Of a stretch of 64,000 bases of DNA, positions 75 to 52,611 are shown in pieces. Under the pieces are notes generated by a model, which worked only from the letters and a program-made list of their open reading frames with translations, was not told the DNA's origin and did no database searches. The position numbers were made by a program, and so were the translations under genes. Positions within the stretch are counted from its first letter, which is position 1. Each line of letters begins with the position of its first letter. Origin of the DNA: Antedon mediterranea. Taxonomy: Eukaryota > Animalia > Echinodermata. The DNA lies in NCBI RefSeq assembly GCF_964355755.1, contig NC_092672.1, positions 16,244,001 to 16,308,000 on the forward strand, given 5' to 3'.

Positions 75-186
75 GTAAGTAGGGGCCCAGTTTGAGTAAT
101 ACTAGGGCTAGGCTAGTAGGCCTAGCTCTAGACCTAACTATTGAAATATTAATAGGCCTAGTTAGGACTAGGGTAGGCCTATAGGC

Positions 187-3007
187 GGATGCTAGTCAAG
201 TCGCCCCATCGCAAAGTCGCCCCATACAAAGTCGCCCCATACACAGTCGCCCCATCGCAAAGTCGCCCCAAAACAAAGTCGCCCTGACACAGTCGCCCCA
301 TTGCAAAGTCGCCCCATCGCAAAGTCGCCCCAACGCAAAGTCGCCCCATCGCAAAGTCGCCCCAACACAAAGTCGCCCCATCGCAAAGTCGCCCCAAAAC
401 GTTAAAAAATGGTTTAAAAGTGCGTAAAATGTCGCAATGATACACAAAATAACACGGAACGTGTAGGCATAAAAGGGGAAGCCCCGCCATGTAGTCTCAG
501 GTCACACGATCGGCACGATCGGCACGCTCCCCAATCATCAGAGAGGAAGCCCCCAACTAATCACTCCGCGGTCACACTAACGTGCTAGCTCTCACCAGAG
601 GGAAACCCCGTAATTACTCCGCCGTTGTCGCACTACAACGCACCATCTGAAGATGGGGAAACCCCGTCGGAGTTTTACGATGATATCAGTCGCGTTCGAA
701 ATCGGTGGCGTTTAATTTTGGTCGCGATAAAATGATGTTATACGATCTAGATTATTTTTACTTTGGTCGATGAATATTTATTATTATTAGGCCTATATTA
801 ATAATTGATTTTTGTATTTATTTTACACTGAGGTCTATGATGAGAGAAAGATGTGTGCCTTAAAAATGACAATTTGTAAACATAGTTTAAGATTATAGTA
901 AGCCTATTATTCAGCATAATGTCATTTTAATAACAGTACATATATTTAAATGTGAAATATTTTATAGGGAACGTAGGCTACGTCTGTGTCTTTTATTTTT
1001 TATATGCAACAAATTAGGTAAAACAATTTATTTATAAACATTCAGTTTACTATTATATACATAGTATTACAATGAACATTGATTATAAGCATGGAAATGC
1101 AATCCCATCATTATATCCATTATAAAATTGCATCATATCGCCACTATATGTCGTAAATGATGACGTACATGTGTATTCGTCGTACGTCCGTGTACGTATT
1201 ATTCCGTGCCTCTTCACTGTCTTGTTTATTAAAATTAAATAAACACCCGATATGAGGATATTTATTAGGCATGATAATTAGAATGTTCTATAACCAAAAG
1301 GGTTGAAAAGAATTTCTTCAGTAAAATGATCATTCTGCTGTTGAATAAAAAGCGACTCGCAATCTGAAACATTCTCTGAAACCAATCGGAGCTGCTCCTT
1401 CTGGTATCTGTTTCTACGTCTTTCTGCTGCCCGTCGGGGATTCCCCTTTTTAAAAAACGCGCACACGATAATCATACTGTACGATGGTTTTTCCATGGTC
1501 AAAATGTAGCGTTTTAATTTTACTAATATACCTGCATGTGTAAAACGATCATATCGGCGAAGAAATCCCCTTTTTTTTATTTCTTTATTTTGAAAAGTCA
1601 TAATTAAAATTAAATAACTATAGGCACATAACTTGTCAATACCGTACTGACGCGGGTATAAGCCCATACTCGGGTATAAGCCCACCCCCGACTTTTGACT
1701 AATTTTCATGAAAAATGAGGCACTCGGGTATAAGCCCACCCATTAATTCGAAGATCTACAGTGTGTGTCGTAATACATTATTTTGTATTTGGCGACGTCC
1801 ATACACCGAATACACCTACCTTTGATCATAACCAAGCTAGGCTAATATACGCTAGGCCATATGAGGCCTAGCGGTCCTGTTTTGTTTACACTCCATTGCG
1901 GTCGAAGATCGCTTCACACACGACGCTACAAGTCGCCAAAACGGAAAACCCCTATTTTAGTATTTGGTATCGGCTGCCATAAACAAGCTTATTAAATTTC
2001 TTTGGTACATTTCTATTTAACGAATATTGTATACTTGCTTTTCTGCTTGATAAATTCTTGTTCAATTGATGTTTAAAATAATATATTCTACGATAAATTA
2101 CACAAACTATAAGCTTAATTTTCCGACACTCTACACCTCGTGTATTTAGAGGCAACGTCGTACACGTGAGGGCGCTCGCTCGCATGGTGGAATACACAGT
2201 GTACATGTGCTGTTTTTGACGATCTGCATTTTTGGATCCTCGGGTATAAGCCCACCCCCCAAACTTGACGTGATTTCATGTTCGAGGGGGGTGGGCTTAT
2301 ACCCGCGTCAGTACGGAATGCAAAATGATCAATAAGTAGCCTATAAAACATTTATTGTCTTACAATGCTGTTATTGTTTTAACTACTGTAAATATACGAA
2401 GGCCTACTATTTATACACTTATTATATTATCCTAAAAAATGAGCTGGTATTCACGCGTAGGTTGAAGAAAGATTCGTAATTGTGGCTCTGGTAATTTTAA
2501 AATCATATTAAATTAACATTTTCGAAACTATAAATCAGGGATAATCTTTTCGAAATCTTTTTAGAACTTTCAAACAAGGGACTATTTTTTAATGATTTTT
2601 AAAAAGCACATCACTCCATTAAAACCTGTAAAATAAAAATTAAAACACAAATTATGTATAGGCCTATAATAGGATAAACATTATAATGTATACGACATTT
2701 AGCGCGACCAAAGTAACAACGCAATCGATATCAAACGCAACCGCTATATGATTAAAACAGCGTACTACTACTAGCGGCGGCACTTCCGAAATAAAACTGT
2801 GGGCGACTTTGAGATGGGGCGACTTTGCGTTGGGGCGACTTTGCGTTGGGGCGACTTTGCGATGGGGCGACTTTGTAATGGGGCGACTGTGCCGGAGCGA
2901 CTTTGTTTTGGGGCGACTTTGCGATGGGGCGACTTTGCGATGGGGCGACTTTGTATGGGGCGACTTTGTATGGGGCGACTTTGCGATGGGGCGACTTGAC
3001 TGGATCC
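187..3007. mobile_element. Non-autonomous foldback/Mutator-like (MULE, TU/Phantom-type) DNA transposon
   Basis: Inverted arms of tandem 16-bp units (AAAGTCGCCCCATCGC at ~195-396; reverse complement at ~2800-3000). GGAT...ATCC ends and a 9-bp TSD CCTATAGGC (178-186, 3008-3016). Confidence 0.85.
1642..2316. mobile_element. pogo/Tigger-like MITE (family A) nested in the foldback element
   Basis: TIR CCGTACTGACGCGGGTATAAGCCCA at both ends, TA on the left flank, repeated GGGTATAAGCCCA subterminal motifs. Confidence 0.8.
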
Positions 3008-3079
3008 CCTATAGGCTAGGCTAGCGCCTAAAGCTAGGTCTTGCCTAGGCTAGGTAAGGTTAGGCCCCTAGTAATATTC

Positions 3080-3270: not shown

Positions 3271-4438
3271 TTTGTGTTATATAAAATAATGTGCCACATT
3301 TCATCATTTTTCATTCCTAGTGCTTAGTGCCAACGTGCTTTTCTTGCGTAATTAAGATTTTAATTAAAAAGGTTATAAATTAGATTTTTTTCTGATTTAT
3401 CATAATTTTCCCCTAATTAACACAACTGGTTTTAAGAATTTCTTACCAATACTCTCGATTTATGAATAAATGTGATTGATTTTGATTGTTATTATTGTGT
3501 TGTTTGTATTCGCATATTTATTTTTTTAAATTTTCCGAGAATGTTTTGGGCCCGATTCATTGTCTTGTTTGCTGGGCCCGATCGTCTTTCACCCTTGATG
3601 GGATATTTTTCAATTTATCTTTCAGCATTTGAATAGTGTTCAGTTTGAAAGAGTATTATATTCATAAGCATTTTAAACTTTAAATCAACAATAAAATTGA
3701 TTGAGTATTTCGAAAGTTATGAATAAAGATACGATACCGTATCCAAATTTCCGTCTACTAAAGGTACGGTAAAATTGCATTACGTCATAATCTGCCAATG
3801 GGGTGCTGGTACGTGTGTGACGTCATCATATAAGGATTTTGGATTTTTTTCACATCGCGTCTGTAGAGAATGCCTATCGACGGCGCCAGGCTGCATGGAT
3901 GTGTGCGCTGATGATTCTGTGACTCAGCCTCGGGGCTAGACCTAACAATGTTGAATCCAGAATTGTTGAATCCAGAATCGTCGATTCTGTAGTAATAGAG
4001 CAAGATAATGGGTTGGTGGACGGTACATAAAGTGTTCAAAACATGCACTCAATCTCAAATATTATTTCATTATACAACATTTAATTAAAACTTCAATAAC
4101 GCGACCAGTTGATACGGTTGGCCGGCTGCCGAGACTAAACATGGAGGTTGCGTAGCGAAACATTGACACTGAGATGTCAATTTACTATTATTTTTTGCTT
4201 TTTTTTAGTGTTTATCCTTAAAATTCATGAAAGTGATATAGCCTATCGTGTGCGGCCCATCAAGAAACATTCAGCAGTGCATGTAATAAGAGATATGTAA
4301 AATTACGCGATAAATTTAGTAGCAGTAATATAGATAATAGCAAACCAGTATACAGTAGCCACAGCTATGTACATATACATTCAGCCATACCCCGGCGAGA
4401 GTCTAGCTATCCAATCGAATTGGAACAATGCAATGAAA

Positions 4439-4511
4439 GCCCCAGTGGTCTAATGGTTAGAACATCTGCATATCAAGCAGAAGGTTCCGGGTTCGAATCT
4501 CACTTAGGGCT
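4439..4511 (+). pseudogene. tRNA-like sequence (Asp-like ATC anticodon); pseudo-tRNA or SINE head
   Basis: GCCC...GGGC acceptor stem, A box TGGTCTAATGG, anticodon arm TCTGC-ATATCAA-GCAGA, B box GGTTCGAATC. T and acceptor stems are imperfect. Confidence 0.6.
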
Positions 4512-5220
4512 TTCTCTCATTCTCACAGGTTTCCTTATTTTTATTGTTTCTAATTAATTAAATTTCATTATATCACCGGACGGATTAGAATTTATTTTGT
4601 GCCTGTGATGTTTATATACTGTATAATATAAATTCAAAGGCAAATTACTGAAAAAATGACAATGCTGTGGTTATCAGCGGCGGGATCTCAATGGAGATAC
4701 AAAAAAGGCGAAAAGCTAAATCAAAACGATAAATTAAAACAGCCAAAAAAGTTAGCAGAGCTTTCGGGCAACACTAGCCCTTCATCTGTATATATATGTG
4801 TATGTGTGTGTGTGTGTGTTAAAAATAGGCGCCATCTTGGTTTTCAACATGGCGGCTGTTTACAGCTTTAATATCAATATATTTGAAATCCTCAGTCTCC
4901 CAAACATAGGTATAGACATCATTTTTAACTTGCTACGTCAATTAAAAGTCAAGTTATAAGCCAAAATAAGTCTGAAATGGCAGCCATTTTTTTTTCACAT
5001 TTTAAGGGTGAAGATCTAAAAATTGAACCGGGTAAACAGCAGATTTGAATTCAGCACCCCGAAATTACCCTAAAACACATGTTTTTTTGCTTTTAACACG
5101 AAATGTCTACACCATTTCATTTTTCTCAAATCTGGACTAGTTTATACACTACACTACAGTAGAAATATGTTGATAGCCATATTAGAAAATGTAAAATAAA
5201 TGTTGGAAATTGTGTTGCAT

Positions 5221-5240: not shown

Positions 5241-7918
5241 GTTGCGTCTAGTTCATTTGTCCATAGTTACTATGAGGGTTTTATTTTTCCAAATGGCCTA
5301 TTTAGGCCTATATTTTTTAATAAACTTTGTTTACAGATGGTGACCATTAACAAAAAGCAAATGCGGACAATAAAGGGCCCCTCAAATACTATGATTTAGA
5401 CAATAGGCCTAGCCCCAGGTCTTAGTCACAGAAATCAGCACACACATGCAAACAAACTCATATACCGAAGCTATAGGTTATAGCATGGTTATAGTACATA
5501 GTAGGCGCCTCTTTTGAAACGGTATATTTCTGTATTCTAAAATTAAAATCAACATGTTTTGGCCTATCAATAATTACAGACGTAGGCCTAGGCTACATTT
5601 ACTTTTTGTCACACGACGGGGATATTTTATAATAGCGATAAATGAAGCATAAAGAAAATGTTAAGCCGCCGGTTGATGGGTGTGTAGAAAGCGATGACAA
5701 CGAATTGGACGACCCCAACGACCCGGGCGACCTCGAATTGGACGACCTAGAATTGGACAACCCATAACACGAAACCGACTACCCCTATAGCCTAGCCTAG
5801 CCTAGACCTATGTGTGGTATAACATCCCGAAGCCGAACATAGCCAAAGATCTTTAAACCATACCTTATATAATACTCGCAAGCAAGCAATTGATTGAAAA
5901 AATACAGAAATATCGCCATTTGATACTGAATGTGTCGACACGGGTAATCTCTTCTTCCTCGGTCACATTTGCCTCATTTTAATATATGTCACGCTAGGCT
6001 GAACAACACTCTCATGAATAATAAACAGTTGATTACGTCATACTATACAACTGGGATTTTACCTCTTGAATATTCAATAACAATTTTAAAGACCATGATG
6101 TCATTTAAATTCCATCTGAACTAACTCATCCCAAATTTATGTGATGAGGTCATAATTAAGGCACCTTAAAGTGGAGCTCCACCCAGAAAATTACTATTTT
6201 TCATACATTTCAACTATTATTAAAAAATATCCCTCATACTTCATATTTTTTTGAATTTTTTTCAATGAGTATGATTTTCTTGAAAATCACGCCTTTTTGC
6301 GTTTTGGGGGGGGATACCTTGTAATTTCCTATTCTTTTACATCCAAAAGGGGGGTATATTTGAATAATCCTAAAAAATTAATTTGTTCACTAAAAAAAAA
6401 ATTTTAAATGTACTTTTATGTAATTTTTCCAGATCTTTATATTTCTGGTATTTTTATCGCGTATACATTGCGCAATTTGCGTAAATAGACACATTCCCCC
6501 GTTCGGGTCCAATTGGGTTTTTTATTTCGCTAGGGAGTATGATCACGTGACATTTTTCACAATCACACAGCTGGCGATCTCTATTTGTAGCGGTATTATT
6601 TTTGACAGGCGAAAAGTATATTAAAACATTCTGAATGTGACCCTATCATGTTTCACAGTGGAATAATGTGATTATGAGACTATTACTAAAATGTCAAATT
6701 TTATTTATTTATTTATTTTATTTTATTTAATTATTCATTTCCCAACCAACAGTGAGCTCATGGTTCACCACTTACAAGAGGGAACGAGATTTTGAGAAAG
6801 ACGTGGCTATATATTCAATAAAGTTAGGCCTAGGCCTACTAGAGTGTAGGTATGTACCGATGCTGCTTGGCCTCTAGCTAGGCTGACAGCAGTGAAGTTT
6901 GTTCTGCTGACACCCAACCTCGGCCTACCCATGGGCTATGATAGGGTGCCTGAATAGTTGCTTTTCAGTTATAGGCCTAAGCTTCCACATCGCTTATACT
7001 ACTCTTTACTTCTCTTGTTCTGTATAGGATTTTGTGTTTCACAATTCTTAATGTGCGAGAAAACCCAGAAACGATAAATGGGGCGAAACGATCAAGCATT
7101 TTCAAACCCTTGAATGCAAAGGCCTAGACAAAAATTCAAGGCTGAGCAGACGGCTTAGCTAGGCCTAGGCCTAGCTTAAGTTAATAAGCAATCTGATATG
7201 ATTATTATGCTGTTGTTGTACAGTGCAAATGTGACCGAGGAAGAAGAGATTACTGTCGACATGAACAAACGAACAGATATGGAACGCCAAGAGTGCATCA
7301 TTAAAACTGCATTCGACTCGATTAGCACACGAAATATCATAAACATGGTAAACCAGGTCAAAACGGCCTCTTTTTAAGCGGCAGGTAAGGTTTGACCGTA
7401 TACAATGCATGCGTGAAATGTAATGCTTTCTTATGGCCCTCCCCATGCACATGTTCGCAACACGCTGCTTGGTAGGCCTATAGTGTTCGTTATAAAAAGA
7501 CGAGTATGTAATTATACGTCCATGGTTTAACCATGTACCGTAATGTATAATATTTATTTCTTTTTAATTTATTTTTAATATGTTTGTCGAAATACCATCT
7601 TTGTTTACAGGCATGTCTGCCACAAGCATCTGATTTTGGATCATGCCTTCTTCAATTTAATTAATCTTGTTTATCTCCATTTGTAAACTGCTTTTATTTG
7701 ATAAAAATAAATTGATTGTGTGATTGGTTATAGAACATAATAAACATAACGTATTATGAACAATGCTCAATAGATTGATGCACTCTTGGCGTTCCATATC
7801 TGTTCGTTTGTTCGTGTCGACACATTCCACATTTAGTATCAAATGGCGATAGTGTATGTTCGGCTTCGGGATGTTATACTATACTTATTAAGCCTAGGCT
7901 AGGCTAGGCTAGGCTATA

Positions 7919-10900
7919 TTGATTGATTGATTTCTTTATTAACTGAGTCAACACAGATACATACAATAAAAACATGTAAACAATTAAAATCAGTACAACA
8001 GACTCGAGTTAAAAGAAACAAATTACACAGATTCCTTATACAAAAAAGAGATTAGATTAACAGTTAAAATCCAAAATGTAAAATACGAAATATTTTAAAC
8101 TAATAGTAAAATATTTAAAATTTGTATAAAATGCTTTAAAAAAAAAAAAAAAAATTAAAAATACAATGATTTTAGAGTCTGTTTAAAAGAGTTTATGTTC
8201 GACGATTTCTTGATATAAAGAGGAAGATTGTTCCATGCTTTAATAGCGTTAAAATAAAACGTTTTGCTAACACATCCTTTAATTATTGGGATACGGAAAT
8301 TACACATAGGGCTACTTCTGGTCACCCTCTCATGAAAATCCCTGATAAGTGTAAAATGCTCATTTAGGTACAATGGAGCAGTGTCGTTAAAAATCTTAAA
8401 AACATAGCATAAACTTAAAAAATTAAACCTATTTACCACATTTAAAGGGGGATTCTGGGTTTAAAATTGCTTTTAAATATCGTTTATTTATTAAATAAAA
8501 AATATTATAACAATATAGACATGTCAGACTGAAGAAGTAATAACGAGAAATTAAAAAAATTAAATTTCATATACATTTTAGGGTAAATTCATGGAAAGTC
8601 TGTTTTTCAGCAGCTTTGGGAAGCTCATTAATATTCATGAGATATTCACAAAATCACGTCATCAGTGGATTCCAAACTCGTGACGTCATGTACGTTGTGT
8701 TTGTCAATTAATTTACATCTCTCTCCCCTGTCAAATGACGACCACCCGATCATTGTGAAATACATTTTTTTTGTAGATTTTCTAAGCTAGGCCTAAAGTG
8801 TAATAATAACAGTAGTACCATTTATTTGACATTTAATAAAATACAAAATTTAATACAGATTACGGTCATAAATTATATACTATTTTTATACCTCGAATAG
8901 TACAGACAGATCGTATTATTATCGGCTTCGAATCACGTACTAGGTTAGGCCTAGCCTAAATCATTTTTTTTGTCATGGGTGAGAGCCATTCTGACTAGGG
9001 ATTCCATGCCATGATGGCTACGTTAAAACATTGGGGCCCATCATGGGCCTAGCTAGACTATTACTAAACGATTGGCCCATAAATAACAAAACTCAGTGAA
9101 TTCCAAAACCCATCCTATCAACCAAACTCCTAAACAATCTAAACCTAAAACATTCTACAAAATCGGCTGTAAATATTGAGGCAAAACAAGGTCCGATCGC
9201 CGTCCGCACGTATGGTGTCCCGATCGTCTAAAGTAGGCCTAAAATAGGCCTAGCCTAGTTTACTCTCCAAAAATTGCATCAAGCAAGTAGACCAGGTAGT
9301 AGGAAGGAGACCTAGCCGATCCGGCCCAGTTAAAAATTGAGCTAGCTAGTGTAGTAGACCCTATGCGAATTGATACTACCAGGCCTTTTACTCCCGCTTT
9401 TACTATAGGCTACACTTGTTAAAATTAGCAATACTTATGTTTACAAATATTCCAACTCTCTCATTCGAGCTATATTATCTATACCATTCCGGTAGGTCGA
9501 GCCGACCTTCAATCAAATACTGTTATGTATGTACATCGTTCATGTTGTGATTATAGACGGGGTATACTTGACCCGACCAGTTTGGTATTGTATACTGTAT
9601 CTGCTTATCACGTGACGATGCCAGGCATGGGCAGAGAGAGCATGTGTAATCGTCGTCTCGCTCTCCTCGCTCAGCAGGAATGTATACGTTACGGTTACGC
9701 TTCATTGATTTTGAAGGCTTTCCCTAAGTCAGTGCGAAAATCGGCAAACGTAAAGTGCAAACATATCTAATTTTTCACTGTTTTGATGAATTTTCATAGA
9801 AAATTGACTTTATAAATGGGAAGACTGACTAAAATTACATCAGATAAGTATAATTTTACAAAAGTAATTGATATGGTTAATGATAACGAGTCGTCGGAAG
9901 ATTGACCATTTCACAAATTTCCTATTCTGTAACACAGTGTCATATCGCCGTAGCTGCACTTGTAATCTGGCCTCATTTCACAGCCTTTGTTCTGCTTCAC
10001 TGGGCGCTTATATAAATTGAAACTTTTACCGTTCAAGAGACAAACAAATATATTTTACATTTTTTACTATTCATTTTAAACCCGGAACCCCCCTTTAAAT
10101 GTCTTAATTCTTGAAGTTCCGATTGGCCAACATGAGATCTAACATTAGATTGATTAATAAACCTAACTATTTTATTTTGAGATGTTTGAAGTTTTTAGAG
10201 GCTGTGATACATCGTAACACCATCGAAGAGCGGTTGGAGTAAAGCGGAACATAGTAGTTTTCTATTAAACTTATCTAGATTTTTATTTTGCCTACAGGTA
10301 CAAAAATTTAAGGCGGCTATTTATTTTATTAATTATAGAATTGGCTATTAGGTCACCAGAAGCCTGTTGGTCTATTTTTACACCTAGATAATTTATCTTT
10401 GCTGGCTACAATGTCTTGACCAAATGCATTTAATTTAAAATTAACATTGTTTAGACGTCGTTTAGTACCAAATATGATACTCTCAGTTTTTCCGGCGTGC
10501 ATCGTGAGACCATTGTCAACTAACCAGTCATTGCAGTTATTTAAACAATCGTTCAATTTAGCTTCAATAATATTAGGATTTGGATCGCTATACAAAATAG
10601 CACAATCGTCGGCATAAAGTAAAAATTACATTGAGGATCTATTGATGTAACAATGTCATTAATATACACTAAGAAAAGTAGGGGGCCCAGAATACTACCC
10701 TGTGGCACCCCATGTTCTATGCTATTATGACCCGACGTTGCATTCTTAACAGCAACATATTGTTTTCTGTATGATAAATAAGACCGGAACCAGCCAGTGG
10801 AATCACAGCCTATATCATACAATTTTTTACATATAATGCCATGATCAACTGAATCAAAGGCTTTACGTATGTCCAACAAAATCATCCTGGTAAGTTGACC

Positions 10901-12164: not shown

Positions 12165-12285
12165 CCTAGCTACTACTACTAGGCTAGGCCTACTCTATGG
12201 TAGGCGTAGCCCATCATAGATAGGAGATAGTACACTAGCCAGTACAGCTGTACTCTGGGCTAGCTAGGCTTCCTATACTAACTAA

Positions 12286-13378
12286 TACCCCTTTTACACT
12301 ATCACTGTAACAGCGGTGTAACCCCGCAGTTGTTAGTACACCGGGCCGTTAAACTCCGGTGTTGTGGTTTTTATTGACTGGTGTAAATGGGAAAATCCAA
12401 TCTCCCCGGGGTGAAACGAAGCTGAATGTTTTCCGGTGTACCTTCTCCGGTGTAGTCGAATCTACATCGGAGACACGAAGTGTAAACGGTTTTTGTGGTT
12501 CAACACCGAGCTGTTAAAGGTCATTGACATGAAAATTTAACATGTTGTCACAGAAATACAATATATTATGCAAACAAAATAGGTTTTTTTGCTTAAAACA
12601 ATAATTGTACGATATGTTGTGCTGTTCGTTATTTTCTTTTAAAGGCACAAACAAATTTATGACTTTTCTTTTCTGCTGAAAATATTGAAATGTTCGTGTG
12701 CATTCTACCTTACCAGAAAGCCTAAAATAATGTAATATTGTGTAACTCTGCCCTGGTGGCCGATTCTATGTAGGCTTAATTATTGAAAAAGGGAAAAATA
12801 TATATAATACTGACGTCTCAATGGATGAAAATGATATCTTTTTTAGGAACTGAAAAAGTACCATATAATAATTTTCCTTCATTGATTGTTATGCTAATTA
12901 ACAAATACATTTTTTATTTTAAATACTTACCGTACCTACCCTATTTTTACTGCAACCTAACAATTTAGGGCCTATTTAATGTATGTACAGTCTACAAGGC
13001 GGAAATGCAGTCATTTTAAAAAGAAAAATAATTGTTAGGCCCTAATTTTTAAAATAATAAATGATAATCTTAATAGCCACAAAGAAAATATAACACTGGA
13101 CTATATTCAAAATTAAATAAATTGTGTGTAAATTCGGATTATTATGTTTTTATATGAGATTTGTCGATATGTTCCAGTGTTTAAACGTTTAAACCATAGT
13201 CAGTTAAGTTCCACGTGTGCGCTTGCAATAGTAATTTGATTGACAGCACCGGGGTGATCGATGTAGTGTAAATGGGCGCAACTCGAGTTCATCTCGCAGT
13301 TTTTTTGGCTAGTGTAAATGGAAATTGCCTCCGAGTTCAACTCGTGTTCCTCTCTCAGTCGATAGTGTAAAAAGGGTA
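12286..13378. mobile_element. PIF/Harbinger-like MITE
   Basis: TIR TACCC(C/T)TTTTACACTATC, TAA TSD on both sides, repeated GTGTAAA/TACACC subterminal motifs. Confidence 0.75.
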
Positions 13379-13878: not shown

Positions 13879-16172
13879 CATGGAGTAAAGAATAAGAGGA
13901 GACACAACTTGAATAGTTCAGTCAGTTCATCGTGTTTACCGCTTGCTTAAGGCTATGCTTGTAATGAGTATTTAATAGGTGCTAAACACTGCCGTTACGT
14001 AACCCAATTAGCAAAGATTACAATGTTTACTGCCCGCGGTCAATTTTGGTGTTAGTACACATGCGTATTAGGACGTCGCAATACTCTTGCTAGGCGATGT
14101 GCGTTCAAGCGTGAAAGGTGTACTCTACTGTTTGTAGACCTACTGAACTTGTATTCCGACCTTGTTTATTAATTTTTATAAAAAGCAGCGCTGTTCTACT
14201 GGATATCTTTTATTAATAAATAAATAATACGGGTTTTATACGGCACCAATAAAGGAATTATATTTATATGGTTTACTGTGTACTAAATGTTGGTAATTTC
14301 TCCAGACAACTTATCATGAATCATGATTGATTGGATTTAGTAAGGACCAGTGGTGGTGCCAGCGGGGGCTGTATCCCCTCGTCGTCTCCCAAATAAATAT
14401 GTCCATCATTATGGGATTAAATATTATCCTTATTTAGGCTATTTATTAAATAATAATATATTACGAACTGTGGCCTACTATGTAGTAGGCCTATGTGTAG
14501 CCACAAATCGTTAAACAATATATAATTTAGTCCTACAATTTCACTGAACTCTAAGTATGTGATCGTAAAAATCATATATTTTATGATATTAATATCATAA
14601 ATAATTTACCGTATATTTCGGTGTATAAGTCGCACTTTTGACACGCAAATTTGACCTCTAAATTAAGGGTGCGTCTTATACACCGAACATAAATGCCTCA
14701 CCACACAGATTGTACATAGGCCTAGGCCTAGTAGGCTATCGTCACCTCGTTTGCTAGGCCTAGCTACAGTAACTAACTAACGTAACGGCAACCTGCTTCT
14801 GCCTAGTTTTCAAGTCATTTTAGCATGATGTTATACTAAATATGATGAAAAGACTTGTTCATTATGGCGCTTCGAATTTCAAAATTTCATTTGTAAACGT
14901 TTACGTAATTGGAATAGTATTTATTTATACAGTAGTTATACGCACGATCACCGTACCCCAAGCGCAAGCCCTTCTTTTGGTGTGGTGGCCACATGGTGTA
15001 CGGTATTCGACTAGTATATTCTCCAGGTGATTATAGCATGGACCTAGCGTACACACTTCTCAGATACATAGATACTAATCGAATACGATTTTCCGTGAAA
15101 ACGTGCGCCCTCTCGAAATGATCGAGCGAGGCTAGCCCACACACGTGCGTGTTACACACACGGTCATCATGCACTCGATGTTGCGGCGAAACTCAAGTTA
15201 GAAAGAACTTGTTGAGGCTGGGCGCGGCCGAGCCTAGGTAAGAAAAAACCTAAATAAAGGACGCCGTTGTAGATATAACAAAATATATTATTACAATAAT
15301 ATTGATTACAATTTAAAAAAACATTGTTTTGATGAAATATAAGGTGCGTCTTATACATCGACGATATAAAAAATACCGATATTTTACTCTCAGTTAGGGG
15401 GTGCGTCTTATACACAGGTGCGACTTATACACAGGTGCGACTTATACACCGAAATATACGGTAATTTATCAGAATAAAATAGAAGAATTTTAGTTTTGCT
15501 AAACGGTCATAATATAGACTGAAACATAAATTAAATGTCATACAGTAATAGAAATAAGAAATTGTGTCGTTGGAATTCTAATATACGTATATTTTTGAAT
15601 ATTCATGAGAACAAATTATATAATTTTTTTTCATGCGCGCCTTTGCGCGCACTAAAATATGATTTTAAAATAAGTTGGAGTCTTAATAATATGCTACAAA
15701 ATGCACTAGGGTTCGAAAATTAAAAAGTTGCTTAAACGGTAAAATTTCGATTTACCAAATGATACGTCTATGGCTTGATAAAAAATATGATTAATTTGTT
15801 AGCTGGTATAAAAACTGCGATATCTCCGTGAAAATTTACACGATTTTTAAACGGTTTTTTCAAGAAAAAAGCTGAAAGAACAATGAACAACTGCTCAAAG
15901 GTCATGCTTCACTATGATGTATTAGAAACTACTGTGCAGCCTCTGTTTACTTTTCTTGTCACCGATGTCATGCCTGGCTTCTTCCTTAATTAGGGTGTTA
16001 CGTAATCAGAGCCGACTCTGCAGCGAGCTGCACGGGTAAACAGGATATTCTTCAAAGGATCGTTATGGGAAGTTTTTTACACTATGCTTAAGCACTACCG
16101 CACAGCGTGATACTAATTGGATTAACTGGATAGCTAGGCCGTGTTGTGCCTCCTCTTATTCTTTACTCCATG
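13879..16172. mobile_element. P-superfamily-like non-autonomous element (contains a nested MITE)
   Basis: TIR CATGGAGTAAAGAATAAGAGGAG(A/G)CACAAC and a 7-bp TSD CTTTTAC. Confidence 0.8.
14609..15461 (+). mobile_element. pogo/Tigger-like MITE (family B), intact copy
   Basis: TIR CCGTATATTTCGGTGTATAAGTCGCAC and TA TSD. Paralogs at 41009-43980 and 44959-45595. Confidence 0.88.
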
Positions 16173-17503: not shown

Positions 17504-19240
17504 GGGGCCGTCCAAAAACTAATTTTCCGCGAGTTCCGCGATTTTACCTTCATAGTTCATTGAACCTCGTTTCCGCGGAACATGCGATACAAAAATATTC
17601 ATTCGGAATGCTTGCGGAACGCAATATCAACAATCAAAATGTTGCCGCCCACATATCGCGAGTTCCGCGGGTAGCGGCCTAATAAATAGATGAGATCATA
17701 GTACAGAATAGCACGGTTTTTTAGGCCTAGCTAGGTTGGCCGAATACGACTACAGTAGGCTAGTACTCTACTAGGCCTAGGCCTAGTCCTACTTAAACTA
17801 CTCTGATACTAACGGAGAAAATAATACCAAAACAATTTGTTTGTAGGCATAGTACAACTATTCATACACAGTACAACTATTCATACACAGGGTTTCAACC
17901 ACGGTAAAATTCAAGCCAATGACATCATGTAGTAGAATATAAATTATAGTTATTTTCCGAGTTTCGATTTTTAAAGCTTTTTTTTAATATAAAATTCAAA
18001 ACACGGACGGACGCCGACCCCTCTCTCTCTGTTAATTTAGAATTAATTCTGCACATGTATTGTGGACTATACCATTTCTTTGAGGTCGGTAAAAACGCGT
18101 TCGTTAATTTAGTGTACGACGTTGTTAAACAAGATTTTTCGATGATCTGTCGGCTGGATTATTGAGGTGGGTGCGATAAAATATAAATATACTTCCAACG
18201 ATCTTCGGATTGAGGTGCGTGTTTAACTTTGTTATTAAAAGTGGACACCCCTAATTTTAGACGTATAATGGACTGCACCATGCAGGAACGCACATGCTAT
18301 TTTCTTATCAGAGGGTGCGTGTACGTCAAAAGGAATTGTTTTTCGAACGATCCTTCTAGATCTTTCGTGCGTGGATGTATGTACACGACACGACGCCCCG
18401 TGTGAAATTTCTTATCAGAGGGGTGCGTGTGCGTCAAATGGAATTGTTTTCCCAATGAATTGAATTGCATGTGTTCTCGATCGGATCGGCGGTGGGAGGA
18501 TAGGCTAGGAGTGCGTGTAATGCGTAATGCGTAATCTGATTTATTATTTTCTTTCTGTACTGTACACAGGGGACTATCATTGTTTAACAAGCAAGCATTT
18601 CATAATAAATCTAGGCCTACCTTGGTAGTTGTTTTTACCAGGCTAGCGGCGTGGCAATGACAATGTGGCGACAACGTTAAAAAATGTAAACGCAAGAAGG
18701 AGGGCTCTGCAAGCAAGGGAAATCCCCTTGCAAAGAAGTCAGGCGATGTTTGCGTCTCGTCCGAGTCGTTGTGTAAACAAATCTTCTTGACATTATTTTC
18801 TATCTACTTCAGTGGTTTTTATTGTTGTAAAACTCGGGGCACTCACATTTCATTTATTATTATCTATATATTTATTAATAACAAAAACAAGATCAGACAC
18901 ACGAATGGAAATAATAATTGTAAACAATATTGAAATATAATTTGTTCTTCTGTAAAAATCAATTACCGTAATACTAATACTTAATAGTAATACCTGGCTG
19001 GCAAAGCGTTATTCAAACGAGCACTATATTCTCTAGTATTGGCAATACTGCCGCGAGTTCCGCGATATTGCAAGGCTTTCGCGAGTCTCGCGATATTAAT
19101 TAATATTCATGAGTTCCGCGAGAAAATCAAGCTTGAATGATTTTGCCTCATTACCGCAAGAGACGTTCACTTTCATGGTTGAGTAAGTAATAGGGTATGT
19201 TATCGCGGAACTCGCGGAAAATTAGTTTTTGGACGGCCCC
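17504..19240. mobile_element. Zator- or PIF/Harbinger-like non-autonomous element
   Basis: Perfect ~39-bp TIR GGGGCCGTCCAAAAACTAATTTTCCGCGAGTTCCGCGAT, TTA TSD, repeated subterminal GAGTTCCGCG motifs. Confidence 0.82.
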
Positions 19241-30561: not shown

Positions 30562-33500
30562 TTTATTATTATTATTATTATTTTGATTATACCCGGGGAC
30601 GTCGAGCGCAATCCAGGCCCAAAAACACGAACGACACCGATACGGCTGGATGGACAAACTGGGCACTCCCTAACTTTGACGACTCTCTCTTTGTTGACGA
30701 AACAAATTTAAAACCTCACAACATACAGGACCTGGATATACACCTGGAACGCGACATGCTAGGCCTAGATGAAGAGCTAAAATGTTTTAACCAAAAGGGA
30801 ATGCACTTTCTACATGTAAATGCAAGGTCAGTTACAAAAAACTTGTCGGAACTTAGAATACTTACAAATAAAATCAAGCCCACCATCCTTGCTGTATCGG
30901 AAACATTTTTGGATGCATCGATTGCTGACAATGAGATATGTATACCCGGCTATAGTGTCATCCGACATGATTGAAAATCAAAAAACCAACGCAGTGGTGT
31001 ATGCATGTTTATCAACAATCAGTGTGCATTTAATCATAAACCTGATTATGAATGTCATGATATTGAAACAGCCTGGATTGAACTACTTCTACCCTGCTCT
31101 AAACCTATATTGGTAGCTGCGTGCTATAGACCTCCAGATTGTACTAACTTTACCGAATATCTAGATGAGACACTTCACACGCTGCCAGCTGGCTCAGAAA
31201 TATATATTTTGGGTGATATTAATCTATGTTGTCTAAAGAAAAACCCAAGCTACATTAAATATGAAAAAATTCTTTTACAAAATGGCTTCAAGCAACTAAT
31301 CACCTCGCCCACCAGAGTGTGTTCAAAATCACAGTCCTGCATTGACCATATTATTTCGAATAGCAAGTCTAAGATAACACAAAGTGGCTTTATACATACC
31401 AGCTTCAGCAATCATTACATGATTTTTTGCACTAGGAAAAAGGTGAGAACAAAGAAAAACTCTCATAATACTTTCAAGATAAGACAATTAAAAAACTACA
31501 ACAAAGAAAGTCTTATTGATGAACTAAAGAAAGCTATTCCTGGAATGGTGTTTTTTCAGGTGAGACCGCAGATGAAGCGTGGAATAGTTTCTCCAACACG
31601 TTTATTGAAATTCTTGATAAAATTGCACCCCAAAGAGATGTTAGAATACGTGTAGAGACGGAACCATGGATCACAAACAAAGTTCTAGAGGATATATCGA
31701 CTAGAAATAAGCTAGCTAAAAAAATAAAAATCTGAAAATACTGGGTCATGATATTGGAGAGATTGAACTAAAATACAGAAAGATAAGAAACAAAATCCAT
31801 AGGGACATAAAAACCGCAAAAAGTAATTACTACATAAACTGTATTGAAGAAAACAAAAATAACCCCAAACGTCTTTGGGAAGTGTTGAAACAACTGGGAT
31901 ACGACAATAAATGCCAAATCCAACACGAACATAGTCTTGGAAATCAATGATGAAAAATGTTACGAGAATAAACATGTGACTAACCACATGAATAATTTCT
32001 TTACAACTGTTGCAGATAAACTTGCTGAAAATCTACCCGTACAATCCCATAACGCCTGTAAAGAAGTGTCTTCTCAATACTACAATCAAGTAGAAAAAAA
32101 CGTGTTAATTCTGGAAGAAATTAGTGAGGACTTTGTCCTAAGTGAACTCTCAAAATTTAATGCTAAAAAGAGCTGTGGCCTAGATGGGATAGCTGCTCGC
32201 TTTTTGAAGGATGGACGCTCTGTTATTAGTAAATACCTAAAACATATTATACATAACATAAATTAAAACGGAATCAATCGGACTGAAAATAGCAAAAATA
32301 AAGCCAATTTTTAAAAAGAACAGTTGTCTAAAGGTAGAAAACTATAGACCAATCAGTATTCTCCCTATAGCTTCCAAAATTCTGGAGCGAGCAGTCTATT
32401 CACAGTTGTATAATTATCTTGAGGAAAAAAATCTACTTTTTAAATTTCAGTCAGGATTTTGCAGCGCTCATTCTACTGAAACTTGTCACATTTATTTGCA
32501 GGACCACATCAGAAAATGCCTGATAAAGGTAATTTTGTTGGTATGATCCTGCTTGATATTCAAAAAGCGTTTGACTGCGTTGATCATCGTGTGCTATGCC
32601 ATAAACTATCCGAATTAGGTATTAAATCTGTTAAATGGTTTGAGTCGTACCTAGAAAATAGAAAACAAATTGTTTGTATAAATAAAGCTATGTCGGAGGC
32701 TAGAACGGTTAAATGTGGTGTCCCTCAGGGCAGCCTGTTGGGGCCTTTTCTCTTCTTGTGTTACATGAACGACATGCCTTCATCAGTTGACTGTTGCAGT
32801 ATGCTGATGATAGTGCTCTGCTAGTGTCACATATGGACATTGATGTGGTCAAGGCAGAATTAAAAATGAACATTGAAAATTGCCAAAGATGGATTATAAA
32901 CAATAAATTGTCCCTTCATATGGACAAAACGGAATTTATTATCTTTTGCTCCAAATCTAAAACGAAGTATACTAAGAATGCATCTATCAAAATTTGTAAT
33001 TCAACTATCAAAGCCAAACCATCTGTAGTTTACTTGGGTCTTGAATTGGACCAACATCTGTCAGGGGAGGTGATATGTTCGCATATCCTCAAAAAGGTCA
33101 ACTCGAGACTCAAATTTCTGTATAGATCTGCTAGCCACCTTGATCTTAAAACAAAGAGATTATTGGCATCTGCTTTGGCTCTATGCCTTATTGCTGTTGC
33201 TCTTGGTACTGTGGTATTTCAAAATTGTATGTCTCCAAACTCCAACGTGTCCAAAATAAGGTCATTAGATTTGTCCTAGGAAAGGGACCACGATATCACC
33301 TTTCTGCCTCCGACTTTAAACTTGCTGGCTATCTAAATATTATAAATAGAGTGAATCAACTGCAACTCAATCATATTTTTAATTTAATGCACAATTTCTC
33401 CCCTGTGTATATGCGTGAAAACTTTTTGAAAGTTTCAGAAAGACATCACCATAATACAAGGGGCGCAGCATACACGATTTTGTTAATCATTTATAAAAAA

Positions 33501-34750: not shown

Positions 34751-34955
34751 CCCAAGTACATTGAGGGACTAATGAAGGCAGCTAAAGTGCGAAATAGGGA
34801 AAAAGAAAAAATAATGGAACGCAAGATCCAAAAGGAAAGAGAGGAAGAAGGAGATATCGGAGAAACTGATGCTTTTGTTACATCAGCATACAAGAAGAAA
34901 CTAGAAGAAATGAAAAAAGAAGAAGAAAAGGAAAAAAGGGAAGCTGAGAGAGAAG
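34751..34955 (+). CDS. NSRP1: NSRP1 exon 5 (PKYIEGLMKAA...DAFVTSAYKKKL...EAERE)
   Basis: TTTCAG acceptor, G|GTAAAT donor, 205 nt. Contains the PKYI and FVTSAYKKKL motifs; overlaps ORF 34772..34963. Confidence 0.95.
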
Positions 34956-41008: not shown

Positions 41009-43980
41009 CCGTATATTTCGGTGTAAATAAGTCGCACTTTTGACACGCAAATTTGACCTCTAAATTAAGGGTGCGTCTTATACACCGGGTGCAGGTCAAG
41101 TCGGCCCCAAACCGTCTCGGCCAAAGTCAAGTCGGCCCCACGTCAAGTCGGCCCCAAGTCAACTCGGCCCCAAGTCAACTCGGCCCCAAGTCAACTCGGC
41201 CCCAAGTCAACTCGGCCTCAAGTCAACTCGGCCAAACGTCAACTCGGCCAAAAACTAATCGGTCAACTCGGCCACAATAAAGTATGGAACGCAAAAAGTG
41301 CTTAATATTATTATGATTCTTACTATCCACGCTTTAAAAAAAATGAAGAAATAAAAAATATAATATAATTAAATAATATCATATAAAAAAATGAACTCAT
41401 TGCCGATATGAATAGAAGTACCAGCATTTTAGTAAATCGAAGACGGAGGCCTACGTTCCACCATTTGGCCATAGAAAAAATGATTGTACATCGTTTTTGT
41501 CAATGATTTTCGTTTTTAAAAAAGGGGAATCCCTCTGTCAGCGAAAACACGTAGCAGTTGTAGATATCGAAAAAGCTGCCAAACGCGCAGGGAGGCTCAG
41601 CTACGAATTGTTTTCAATGCAATTTGAAATTTTATTAAACGTAAATAAAGGAAAGTTGGTGAAATCATTCCTATTTTTTTTGCTAAATATATTATCTATA
41701 TATAAATTATGGTTAATTCTGACATAGGCGAGCACAATGCAAAAACTTCGGTACAAATCTCCGCCTTGGATACCTACCTTATCTATCTCAGATGCACCGC
41801 GAAACGTAGATTTGATAACATTAGTTTTCACATCGACGCTATTGTTCCATATTTCTATCTTAGGAAGATATTATAAAGAGTTTTTTAACACAATTTATGA
41901 TTTCAACAGTAGATTTTCTACTCAATTTCAATTCTTCGCGGGTCAAAGTAATTTCCGGGTTCACCTTGCAACAACCTGGTTTCAACTATTTTCTCTCTTT
42001 TATACACAAGGGAGCAGTTAAAATAATAGATTTGACCCTAAAAGTGACTGGAAACAGGCACTTTCCATCAATCAATACAGTGTCCCTTTGGAAGAAGGAA
42101 GAAAAAAACCGATAGTAGGACTGGAGCTATAGTCGCATAGCCATTTCAGTTTTTTGTTTATTTTAGGAACGGACCGCGCGTGTGTGAAGGTACAGTAGTT
42201 AAAAAATAAAAATAATACTGCAAATTAATAAAGATCAAATTAAATATACGCCATAAAGAATCGGAATATATTGTGGGAAATAGTATTATAAAATTACATG
42301 GGGAGATTTGATGATAAGACATTTTGTTCAAAATCGAGTGAAATCCCGATAGTTGATTGAGTAAGTTGGCAGGAATAACTGTAGACTACCTGTGTCCCGT
42401 TAGGACCGAGATGTCTGCCCATGTTGCAAGCCGTAATGTCTTCTTTCTTGGGCCCACTCTGTCACGGCAGTTAGTTTAAAAAAATGTTTAAATTAAATAA
42501 TGTATTAATAATTATTAGGATGGTATTTATTTGAATAAACGCCTCTCCAATAAAACATCACTTTGAATAATAATCATTATACTATTTGTAGTAGAATTCA
42601 TCGCACTGTTATCTACAATTTACCAAGCATTTGTTATTCTTTTTTACCACTGACTTTTCATATCTATTAGAGGATTTCATTTGATTATAAATGTTAACCA
42701 TATTATTAAAACTAAAAAAATTAACATATATCCCTCGAATAAGCACCTCCCTCCAATGAACTCCGCCTCCCAAAAGGGCCCTACCAAAAAATAAACACTA
42801 TACTTTAAAATTAATCATCTAAAACACTGTGAAAGAGAACGTAGTTTTACGAATGTCAAGCATTTTCAATAATGGTAACCGACAGAAAACGTACAAGGAG
42901 AACATTTTCATCATTCCGAGAACCATCGTCTACACTTCCTAGAGGGGCAGTGAGCGAAGCGAGCTCACCCTCTAGTTGTCTAAATATTAATATTCATTAA
43001 AAGTCAAAATTATTCATAGTTAAAAAATTGTGAAGAAATATTATTTTATCAATCCCCTTCATTTGCACTTTTTGCGTTCCATACTTTAACGGGGCCGAGT
43101 TGACCGATTATTTTTTGGCCGAGTTGACGTGAGGCCGAGTTGACTTGAGGTCGAGTTGTCTTGGGGCCGACTTGACTTGGGGCCGACTTGACTTTGGCCG
43201 AGACGGTTTAGGGCTGACTTGAATCGAAATCTATACACCGAACATAAATGCCTCACCACACAGAGTGTACATATCGTCACCTCGTTGGCTAGGCCTGAGT
43301 AGGCTAGGCCTAGCTACAGTGTACTAATGTAACGGCAACCTGCTTCTGCCTAGTTTTCAAGGCATTTTAGCGTGATGTTATACTAAATATGATGAAAAGA
43401 TTTGTTTATTATGGAGCTGTTTTAGGCGCTCCGATAAAATTTCATTTTCATTCATAAACGTTTACGATTGGAATAGTATTTATTTATAGTTATACGCACG
43501 ACCGCCGTACCCCAGCGCAAGCCCTTGGCGGCCACATGTTGTACGGTATTCGACTAGTATATTCTCCAGGTGATTATAGTATGGACCTAGCGTACACACT
43601 TCTCGGATACATAGATACTAATCGAATACGATTGTCCGTGAAAACGTTCGCCCTCTCGAAATGATCGAGCGAGGCTAGCCCACACACGGTCATGCACTCG
43701 ATGTTGTGGGTGCGAAACTCATGAATAACAAGTTAGAAACAACTTGTTGAGGCTGGGCACGGCCGAACCTAGGTAAGAAAAAACCTAAATAAAGGACGGC
43801 GTTGTAGATATAACAAAATATATTATTACAATAATATTCATTACAATTTAAAAAAAACATTGTTTTGATGAAATATTAGGTGCGTCTTATACATCGACGA
43901 TATAAAAAATACCGATATTTTACTCTCAGTTAGGGGGTGCGTCTTTTACGCAGGTGCGACTTATACACCGAAAAATACGG
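41009..43980 (+). mobile_element. MITE family B interrupted by a MULE insertion
   Basis: Same TIRs and TA TSD as 14609-15461, and collinear with it once 41088-43240 is removed. Confidence 0.88.
41088..43231. mobile_element. Non-autonomous foldback/MULE element
   Basis: Inverted arms of 16-bp AAGTCAACTCGGCCCC units and a 9-bp TSD TATACACCG (41079-41087, 43232-43240). The empty site is seen at ~14677-14690. Confidence 0.9.
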
Positions 43981-44958: not shown

Positions 44959-45595
44959 CCGTATATTTTGGTGTATAAGTCGCACCTGTGTATAAGACGC
45001 ACCCCCTAACTGAGACTAAAATATCGGTATTTTTTATATCGTCGATGTATAAGATGCACCTTATATTTCATCAAAACAATTTTTTTTAAAATTGTAATCA
45101 ATATTATTGTAATAATATATTTTGTTATATCTACAACGGCGTCCTTTATTTAGGTTTTTTCTTACCTAGGCTCGCCCGCGCCCAGGCTCAACAAGTTCTT
45201 TCTAACTTTTTATTCATGAGTTTCGCACCCGCAACATCGAGTGCATGACCGTGTGTGTAATCGTATTCGATTAGTATCTATGTATCCGAGAAGTGTGTAC
45301 GCTAGGTCCATGCTATAATCACCTGGAGAATATACTAGTCGAATACCGTACACCATGTGGCCGCCAAGAAGGGCTTGCGCTGGGGGTACGGCGATCGTGC
45401 GTATAACTATAAATAAATACTAGCCTAGGCTATTCCAATCGTAAACGCTTACAAATGAAATTTTATCGGAGCGCCTACAACAGCTCCATAATGAACAAAT
45501 TTTTTCATCATATTTAGTATAACATCATGCTAAAATGCCTTGAAAACTAGGCAGAAAAGGTTGCCGTTACGTTAGTATACTGTAGCTAGGCCTAG
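44959..45595 (-). mobile_element. Truncated inverted copy of MITE family B
   Basis: Starts TA|CCGTATATTTTGGTGTATAAGTCGCACC; reverse complement of ~14755-15461. Confidence 0.85.
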
Positions 45596-50555: not shown

Positions 50556-52611
50556 CATCCGTCCAAAATATTCAATGCTTAAGGCGTCATTTACAAATTA
50601 TTTCAGACCACAGAGACGCGTCTGAAAACTTGCAACCCATCAGACGCGTCTGTCCAATGCTGAACCTCATTAACGATCTATTATGAATATTCATGAGCTA
50701 CCCAATCGCGGCGAAGACGCGTCTGTGTGATTAAAACCCGTCTTCGCTGTTTAGTAGGTAAAACAATAGAAAACGCGTCTGAGTGATTAAAACCCGTCTG
50801 TATTGCTTGTATGGTGAAACAAAATTGGTATCATTTCACAGAACCAACAAATCTGAGACTAGGCCTAGGTTATCCTAATTTGGACGGAAATTCGCCGATG
50901 AGACGACATCGGGCCTGTGGACCTCAGCTCATGCAGAGAGAAAGAAAGTCTAGGCTAGCCTAGTTTCGGCGGCCTACACTAGGGCCTAGGCCTATAAATT
51001 ATTTAACGCTCCTACCTTGGGTTAGCAAATTATAAAAACAATGACACCTAGGCCTAGGCTAGGATATGAAAAATAAATATAATATATTCAATATTAAGAT
51101 AAAACATGTGAGCAGTTTAGAGCTAGAGAGAGAGAGTATTATGTTTCATGTCATGTGACACAAAATCCAGGTACACGATCTTAATTACTGTTTTATCGTC
51201 GTCAGACGGCAGCCGCCAGCGTGTTTTTTTTTCCCAGGACGAACGTGGGCAGAAGTCATGAATAATTCATTACCTTAATTATTTTCTATTATAAAGAATT
51301 GAAAGATAGCTGATACTTCCTAAATATGCTAAACCTAACCCTCTAAATAATCTCTCTCAACTATTAAAAAAAACATGTTCATGAAAGAGCTCGAACTGAG
51401 GGCTTCAGCGTAATAGGTTAAAGCCTTTACCACTAGACCAAACATTTCGGTTGGCAAACGTTGTTTACACTAATTATTTAATCTCTCTGCATTCTTATAT
51501 AGCGCCCTCTATAATGTTCCCTATTATGTCATAATCATGAATTATTCATGATTTCTGCCCACGTTCGTCCTGGAAAAAAAAATTACGCCAGCCGCCAGAG
51601 TATCGCGTTTCATGCCATGTGACCAAAAAAACTAGGTCTGTATTTATTACGGTCTTCTGTCGGCAGTCTTTTTGAGCGACCGACTGAAAACGTTCTGATA
51701 CTATATTTAGAATGAATTGTTTACGATCTTTTTTTCTCGGCATCGTTCTGGATGGACTGGACGTTCGCTATAATATGTTTATTAGTTGGCCTGTTCGTTG
51801 AGGTTCACCTGTGTTGAATCGCGTGTCTCTATGTTTACATCGTGGGAAATTTATATTTATATTCGCCGTTGAGTAGGTAAACACGCATGAAGGAAACGAT
51901 TACGATTAAAAAATATTATATATTTACAACTTGGTCCTCCGCCAGTTAAATTTAACACATTAATTTCACACCTTCTTACTTCACTAAGAACATCGTAGGG
52001 TTGTTTATTTAGGTTACGAACTCCCTACAAAGTTCAGAACGTAGTTCATTGAAAGTTGTTTATTGAGGTTACGAAGCCAAACAATGGAACCTACGAAGCC
52101 AACAATGTAGCCTACGAAGCTACTTCGTAGGTAAAGTTGCAGTATTTTCTTTCTGTACTGTAGGTCAATAGTTTGAGTAATTCCATGTTCCAAAAGTTAA
52201 CTTTAACGTTTTTGCATGTGGTAAATTCACTCTTTAGCACAAGAAAAATAAATCGCAAAAATAAAAGGTCGCGAATAAATAGAAACGAAAATTTGCGCTT
52301 TACAGTATACTCTGTCGGCGGTAAAAGGGTACTGTACTGATTTGTTTGTCTTACTGCCGGTTGTAAATAATAATTTAATATCACGCTCTCAATGAATTCA
52401 CTTGTATGTAGCGCGTTTAACACCAGTACACAGTATAACAATGTGCAGTCAGCCGTATATAGGGGCGGGGCCATAGTCGAACATGCATATTGGCGTCTAG
52501 ACGCAGCCAAATCAGACGGGTTTTGAGACGCGTTTTTGGGTAAACAATAGAAAACGCGTCTGGACGCTGATTTATGGTCTGAAATAATTTGTATAATATT
52601 TGGTCTGGATG
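50556..52611. mobile_element. Unclassified TIR element nested in the Academ transposase
   Basis: Inverted ends CATCC..CCAAA(A)TATT and TACAAATTATTTCAGACCA, with repeated AGACGCGTCT motifs near both ends. Confidence 0.65.
51375..51447 (-). pseudogene. Degenerate tRNA-like sequence between ~50-bp inverted repeats
   Basis: Minus strand has TGGTCTAGTGGTAAAG (A box) and AGTTCGAGCT (B box). Flanking inverted repeats lie at 51225-51272 and 51537-51585. Confidence 0.45.

Follow-up and report, generated by a model that had tools for sequence, protein, structure and literature searches.

TA-flanked GGCC, GGC and GCC modules in 64 kb of feather star DNA: candidate excision scars of a TA-targeting transposon

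We analyzed a 64-kb stretch of feather star DNA (hereafter, the window), which was repeat-rich and had a G+C content of 35%. An NSRP1-like gene was located on the plus strand at about 26319–59630; the exon at 34751–34957 showed 99% identity with an NSRP1-family protein of Antedon mediterranea, and the six approximate exons contained no module of the kind described below. The modules at 24595 and 24703 lay in a CpG-rich stretch, which may be the promoter of this gene. A tRNA-like sequence (Asp, anticodon ATC) was found at 4438–4512 in a very high-copy stretch and is probably the head of a SINE. Three copies of one MITE family (A, B and C), the family of copy A being multicopy by read depth, were identified along with numerous chains of short words (Table 1). 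A core module was defined as a GGCC/GGC/GCC-type word with TA on both sides.

Table 1. Positions of MITE copies, module chains and a scar word in the window.
Feature	Coordinates	Strand	Description
Host MITE copy A	14609..15461	+	853 bp, CCG...CGG ends, TA at 14607-14608 and 15462-15463
Four-module chain GGCC, GGCC, G, GGC in copy A	14717..14738	.	TA-GGCC-TA-GGCC-TA-G-TA-GGC-TA
MITE copy B, 5' part	41009..41087	+	Interrupted by nested element with 9-bp target duplication
MITE copy B, remainder	43232..43980	+	Chain-free TAs 43272-43273 and 43474-43475; chains there in other copies/alleles
MITE copy C	44959..45595	-	Truncated before the 14717-equivalent site
Two-module chain GCC, GGC in copy C	45421..45432	-	TA-GCC-TA-GGC-TA
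Two-module chain in repeat	9245..9257	.	Other copies are 5 nt shorter and hold one module
Chain built into the MITE family	14755..14766	.	Copy A without 15 nt of the family form; X5 loose ends at 14753, X1 contig 1
TACAGTA (Sleeping Beauty-type scar word) in MITE copy A	14928..14934	.	5-nt insertion at TA
Chain cluster, left end of 9-bp-TSD element	109..181	.	
Chain cluster, right end of the 9-bp-TSD element whose left end adjoins 109..181	3012..3052	.	
Pure (GCC-TA)x3 chain	5788..5804	.	
Three-module chain	7156..7173	.	
Pure (GGC-TA)x4 chain	7895..7916	.	
Six-module chain adjoining end of 16-bp-subrepeat element	12167..12192	.	
Three-chain cluster, one chain abutting a TACAGTA word	17722..17785	.	
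Cluster of three two-module chains	50951..51061	.	

The 9-bp-TSD element at 187–3007 landed within a chain-rich stretch, and ends related or similar to those of the 16-bp-subrepeat elements near 12166 and 5786 likewise adjoin chains. A multicopy element with long inverted arms occupies 5788–7916 and is bounded by mirror-image arrays, with (TAGCC)3 at its left and (GGCTA)4 at its right border; these arrays may be part of the element ends and not scars. The modules at 34024 and 34049 are arms of a 32-bp hairpin (34024–34055, arms ending in TAGGCTA and TAGCCTA), not new insertions.

Public runs covering the region were X4–X7, from one sample (organism B), with 0.45–0.54 of the window words, and X1, from one sample (organism A), with 0.11. 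Fixed differences from the window sequence suggest that X4–X7 derive from another individual or a sister species.

Word counts in the window were compared with those expected under an order-2 Markov model. The GGCC module, TAGGCCTA, was found at 40 sites versus 1.06 expected, and TAGGCTA/TAGCCTA at 48 sites versus 8.3; by orientation, there were 31 GGC, 17 GCC and 40 GGCC cores. The 5-nt cores GGGCC/GGCCC (TAGGGCCTA/TAGGCCCTA) occupied 5 sites versus 0.44 expected, the GG/CC core (TAGGTA/TACCTA) was not enriched (29 versus 36.7), and GGGCCC and GGCGCC cores were both absent between TAs in the window. TA stood on both sides of 40 of the 185 GGCC words. A short fixed core of 2–4 nt was thus present in both orientations, with a minority of 5-nt modules, and one X4 chain carried the off-series modules GGAGC and GGCCT. 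The words TACAGTA/TACTGTA were also enriched (54 versus 13.9).

Altogether, 93 core modules were located at 72 loci, 55 of which held a single module; with 6036 TA sites in the window (1.5%, about 1 in 65), the statement of an earlier note on this DNA that chains "saturate" it was overstated, while each of the eight regions it listed did contain chains. Loci that held GGCC or more than one module (n = 41) were CpG-rich, as that note had proposed (median of 4.2 CpG per 100 nt versus 2.6 at TA sites generally, circular-shift p = 0.006). Modules were also found within LINE bodies (10982, 30760); TAGGCCTA at 30760–30767 lies in an open frame upstream of the LINE endonuclease region, where a 6-nt gain would preserve the frame.

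The strings quoted earlier from copies A, B and C were all recovered at their positions. The copy A chain was a 20-nt insertion (14719–14738) at one TA, corresponding to a single TA in copy B (43272–43273); within the window this site can be compared in these two copies only, copy C ending short of it. The copy C chain was a 10-nt insertion at a position where copies A and B have one TA. Contig 1 of run X1 spanned 43232–43333 in the chain-free form with 2 substitutions and 0 gaps; therefore, the chain-free form is that of the family. No insertion at 43272 was found among the indel rows listed (12 of 26; four runs aligned to copy B). Alignment of the copies confirms that the chains of copies A and C are derived insertions at TA. 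Gain at TA with duplication of TA was observed for A versus B, for C versus A and B, relative to the family form, and in two metagenome pairs described below. The earlier claim of TA-anchored insertion into a chain-free family form is therefore upheld, and the family consensus does not already contain the seed modules. One chain, present in three copies (14755, 43300 and 45583), was inherited with the family and does not represent new insertions.

Different chains occurred at one and the same TA. Among 396 aligned X4 contigs, loose ends at 43272–43273, read as consensuses of unequal-length, possibly chimeric contigs that represent alleles of loci A/C or other copies, carried the chain GGCC, C, GGCC, GGC (5 contigs) and a second form, GGCC, GGAGC, GGCCT, GGC (3 contigs). 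Both shared their outer modules with the copy A chain and had different middle modules, a pattern that suggests a two-module ancestor struck again at its central C-TA-G. A loose end at 43476 (1 contig) opened a chain starting with (G)GCC, GCC, C, unlike the copy C chain. A gain of 6 nt at 43347 (5 X4 contigs) added a module and was also a perfect tandem duplication. The same was true of the module difference at 9248, where the 5 nt were absent from an X1 contig and from 42%, 50% and 50% of depth in X4, X5 and X6, respectively; for this reason, neither gain has power to discriminate between mechanisms.

The TACAGTA insertion in copy A (indel row 43486) was subfamily-wide, with depth of 8395/22862 in X5 and 8946/21129 in X7; no such row was present for X1 or X4 among the rows listed. 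A filled allele, with an element opposite the scar, was not seen among the indel rows listed. The second of the two TAs in a TACAGTA word (41002–41013) forms the start of MITE copy B, whose target may therefore have been an older scar left by a different family.

Lone modules were not copies of adjacent sequence. No tandem duplication was detected at lone TAGGCCTA sites in the window (0/18), and 14 of these 18 sites were free of further modules within 50 nt. In chain-free copy B, the nearest TAGGC or GGCC was more than 50 nt from the site of the copy C chain. The neighboring family chain was rejected as a template of the copy A insert: their 17 matches with 1 gap were equaled by random four-module chains (p = 0.29). 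Slippage-type copying was seen for some chain additions only, and the seeds agree with the earlier note in being TA-anchored without copying their surroundings. Its assertion that the chains are not a microsatellite holds for the lone modules and is weakened by the identical neighbors reported below and by the duplications at 9248 and 43347. One-mismatch neighbors of TAGGCCTA numbered 36 versus 21.7 expected, an excess of about 14 sites; therefore, mean decay is near 4–5% per base, and the module class is young.

Paralogous MITE/repeat copies were dropped from the counts of adjacency (three intervals), of the −4 base (3 loci) and of the −1/−3 flanks (6 loci). Core modules abutted core modules at 34 of 174 sides, compared with a base rate of 1.5% (about 13-fold) and a local rate of 4.3% (50/1153). 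TACAGTA/TACTGTA scars abutted each other at none of 104 sides, and GGC modules abutted TACAGTA-type words at 1 of 174 sides with 1.55 expected, i.e., at chance. A general hot-spot model was rejected, since GGC modules stood beside CAG or CCG words at 1 and 1 of 174 sides, not above chance. Because TACAGTA scars do not chain, the chains belong to the GGC process and not, as proposed earlier, to general transposon traffic.

Target sites were reconstructed and their half-sites symmetrised, palindromic symmetry being assumed. A palindromic preference was found under this assumption: C stood at −1 in 42 of 132 half-sites (32% versus 17% in the local background, p = 2e-5; 36/126 after removal of remnant-like flanks, p = 7e-5), and T was avoided at −3 (27/132 versus 35%, p = 3e-4). 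Lone GGCC modules had A at −4 in 21 of 36 cases in the window, which was not repeated in the metagenome pool. The −1 C odds of about 2.3 per side, applied to the local rate of 4.3%, predict adjacency of roughly 7–8%, about half of the observed 15–20%. Adjacent core pairs were identical in 10 of 17 cases versus 33% expected (5/12 without the two pure arrays) and mixed in 7 of 17. Pair order had no left/right bias, 4 pairs fitting a two-ended single repair and 3 not. Given the half-explained adjacency, the identical pairs and the off-series chain, slippage or template switching likely adds some modules.

For contrast, metagenome contigs were scanned for triple modules, which yielded 112 loci of about 510 estimated; 31 were set aside (21 telomere-like, the rest high-GC or near-duplicates), and seed chains were masked. 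The resulting pool of 81 loci (259 kb) is of mixed organisms, each locus being chosen for one triple chain, and provides one contrast only. No BLAST match between the window and the pooled loci was obtained, and a MITE-specific scan of metagenome contigs gave 0 matches. The pooled loci likely come from animals other than the source (e.g., Pfam domains MH1 and LRR-TIR). Enrichment was found in the pool for GGCC (131 versus 3.0), GGC/GCC (123 versus 26) and GGGCC/GGCCC (11 versus 1.2), with GG not enriched (88 versus 92) and GGCGCC absent (0). Among 61 indels of at least 4 nt, two were clean TA-anchored module indels (L014/L026, 99.5% alike, and L030/L077). Module density, 1.45% of TA sites, was the same as in the window. 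The −1 base of the pool was rich in G (160/519 half-sites) and poor in C (73/519), i.e., G-TA-C, and at −3 A was increased and T decreased. Pooled modules abutted at 10 of 570 sides versus 34 of 174 in the window (Fisher p = 7e-15). In this single contrast with a mixed pool, chaining accompanies the C-TA-G preference, a link that would not be predicted from slippage alone.

Telomere-like arrays were noted at L010, L012, L105, L110 and 17 other metagenome loci, several of them mixing TTAGGG, TTAGGC and CTAGGC in both orientations; many lie in high-GC contigs, and they create TAGGCCTA by another route.

The search for a donor element covered the 64-kb window and the 259 kb of pooled loci. In the window we failed to find TA-flanked inverted-repeat elements whose ends are GG or GC, and the 81 pooled loci likewise gave no TA-flanked element with such ends; a Tc1/mariner or IS630 domain (Pfam) was not detected in the 71 ORFs scanned, out of 107 long ones in the pooled loci. 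The 16-bp-subrepeat elements at 187–3007 and 41088–43231, whose repeats are subterminal, were rejected as donors: they are flanked by 9-bp duplications (178–186/3008–3016 and 41079–41087/43232–43240, respectively) and are therefore Mutator-like, not TA elements. A GG-ended inverted-repeat element at 17504–19240, with precise empty-site joints in other copies, duplicates TTA and not TA, and was rejected as well; we take it to be Zator- or PIF/Harbinger-like. Zator and PIF/Harbinger elements have GG ends and a 3-bp TWA duplication. Their scars were rejected as the source of modules: T preceded TAGGCCTA in 10 of 80 half-sites only, and the insertions add the core plus 2 nt. A 28-bp GGC...GCC palindrome (34026–34053) is TA-flanked, but the hairpin containing it (34024–34055) presumably resembles the 5' start of a Helentron-type element, and it was not retained as a donor. 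An inverted-repeat element at 12283–13378 had an empty-site joint compatible with TAA duplication.

The visible CCG MITEs left no clear scar excess: TACCGGTA was absent (0), and the 26 TACCGTA/TACGGTA sites were mostly element ends or internal repeats. A family without a visible copy would thus outscar the visible family by far.

We consider it moderately probable that the GGCC/GGC/GCC words are scars of an IS630/Tc1/mariner-like element with predicted GGC or GG ends, which re-targets its own scars. Elements of this kind, which are TA-specific cut-and-paste transposons, duplicate TA on insertion, and their excision leaves both flanks with 3' overhangs made of 2–3 nt of terminal element sequence. 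Cleavage 2–3 nt inside the element is described for Tc1/mariner in an excerpt of PMC2170065, and the general Tc1/mariner-type mechanism also in one of PMC2874221. Annealing of two GGC overhangs over 3 nt, with a mismatch in the center, would yield GGC or GCC; annealing over 2 nt, with GC perfectly matched, would yield GGCC and, rarely, annealing over 1 nt GGGCC/GGCCC. An almost identical series is expected from GG(G) ends whose overhangs are 2 nt long, and the data favor neither version. Every core module starts with G and ends with C, so both of its TAs would become better C-TA-G targets. Later rounds would stack at the TAs of scars, slippage likely supplying some identical neighbors, and the chain at 14717 would correspond to four separate rounds of insertion and excision. 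As to the earlier proposal of stacked insertion and excision scars, the module series fits repair of excision overhangs, and a GG/GC-ended TA element was not found in the searched sequence.

A possible but rather unlikely explanation is that transposon scars supplied only the seeds, from which chains grew without new transposition by slippage, template switching at palindromes or polymerase-theta-type multi-module repair. This would account for the identical adjacent pairs (10/17), the two arrays that are pure pentamer repeats, the polymorphic additions at 9248 and 43347 and one X4 chain that differs from the copy A chain by exact inversion of the middle 7 nt; in C. elegans, templated inserts are also reported for 24% of the deletions that follow excision of Tc1 (PMC4490562). 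However, scars of the same density in the pool barely chain (10/570 sides), and TACAGTA scars in the window do not chain (0/104), although they should undergo the same repair. Moreover, 7 of 17 pairs are mixed, the copy A insert is no closer to the neighboring family chain than random chains are (p = 0.29), and pair order fits two-ended single repair in 4 pairs but not in 3. It is improbable, in our view, that no transposon was involved and that a host enzyme or repair process (e.g., a domesticated TA-cutting transposase or an end-processing activity) writes a fixed GG(C)/CC module where TA sites are broken in open chromatin of the germline. In favor of it, the donor was not found in the window or the 81 pooled loci, the window and the unrelated pooled loci have similar ratios of modules, and scar density is far above that from the visible CCG MITEs; yet the donor search spanned just 64 kb and 259 kb of other loci, flank preference differs between window and pool, as for different transposases, and Tc1/mariner excision is known to yield TA duplication with a fixed core of 3–4 nt. 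We know of no host enzyme that writes GG(C)/CC modules at TA breaks. In its broadest and equally doubtful form, TA-to-TAGGCCTA would be a donor-less germline mutation class across animals, a host or domesticated TA-cutting enzyme writing GG(C)/CC in open CpG-rich chromatin; depending on flank preference, scars would remain single in G-TA-C lineages or, in lineages of the C-TA-G type, to which this feather star would belong, give self-feeding chains from which new repeat arrays and candidate regulatory words would start.

That the modules are transcription factor sites, or a microsatellite, retained or expanded by selection in promoters seems very unlikely. The CpG-rich setting (median 4.2 versus 2.6, p = 0.006) and 44 occurrences of AGGCCTAG on both strands versus 1.1 expected, a word which we take to be a vertebrate ZFX-type motif, are compatible with selection, but the words arise as whole-module insertions in MITE copies and lie in LINE bodies, and their forms of 7, 8 and 9 nt make up a single series; retention could be influenced by selection, which leaves the origin unexplained. 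Least credible of all is addition of G by telomerase to TA-ended breaks on both sides, followed by head-to-head fusion to TA-GG-CC-TA. It draws on TAGGCCTA inside telomere-like arrays at 21 of 112 metagenome loci and on enrichment of TAGGGTTA in the pool (35 versus 5.1); against it, TAGGGTTA does not rank with the leading 4-nt cores in the window, fusion leaves the TA duplication unexplained, and a TTAGGG telomere, presumably that of the source group, should favor GGG, whereas three-G products are not favored in the window (TAGGGTA 8 versus 7.6, TAGGGCTA 3 versus 1.7, TAGGGCCCTA 0).

If the reading of the modules as scars of a self-targeting transposon is true, one of the most frequent short words of non-coding DNA in this and other animals would be a fossil count of transposon excisions. 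With about 1.3 excess scars per kb in the window, jumping would far exceed the surviving copies. The scars would mark germline DNA that was open, searches for motifs in genomes of this sort could report them as factor sites, and a route would exist from target preference to microsatellite-like chains. The contrast of C-TA-G with G-TA-C can be tested directly across species, and the ends of the missing element can be predicted from the scar series. The window itself contributed family-level polarity, different chains at one TA, CAG scars without chaining and the flank-preference contrast.

Among the literature matches listed, which were a partial set, there was no description of scars of the TAGGCCTA class or of a TA element with GGC ends. 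According to an excerpt of PMC5607494, teleost 6-mers (GCTAAC and kin) are enriched in linkers of hypomethylated domains, and most match no known transcription factor motif. They resemble the present modules as short TA-containing words concentrated in CpG-rich DNA; however, the words are other ones, and that excerpt treats them as nucleosome-positioning, proposing no insertion origin. Repair of Tc1 excision breaks by polymerase theta (PMC4490562) is likewise germline repair that leaves small scars and some templated inserts, but its products are varied, whereas the present modules have a nearly fixed core and gave a negative result in the local templating test. Stowaway elements were repeatedly inserted at and excised from a single TA in intron 4 of Triticeae beta-amylase (PMC1925063, excerpt); as in our chains, several footprints occur at one site, and a new element entered at the TA of a former footprint. 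That case is one plant locus with elements present, in contrast to many loci, a fixed core and no element found here. IS630 targets CTAG, and Tc1 and Sleeping Beauty have target motifs with A at −3 (Table 1 of PMC2577343). IS630 duplicates TA, belongs to the same superfamily and has the C-TA-G preference proposed for the window; unlike the present case it is bacterial, and the preference here is weak (32% versus 17% C at −1) and read from scars, not insertions. The chains work like Tc1/mariner footprints, of which they are putative members, membership requiring that the core be an element end. They differ in the GGC/GCC core, the equally common 4-nt GGCC, the chaining, the occupancy of about 1.5% of TAs and a donor that was not found. 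Sleeping Beauty excision leaves TACAGTA/TACTGTA (PMC6943129, excerpt); as in such footprints, TAs surround a short fixed core with two mirror forms gained as TA plus core, the −3 flank bias is as in the Tc1 and Sleeping Beauty target motifs (PMC2577343), and the Sleeping Beauty-type word itself was inserted in MITE copy A (14928).
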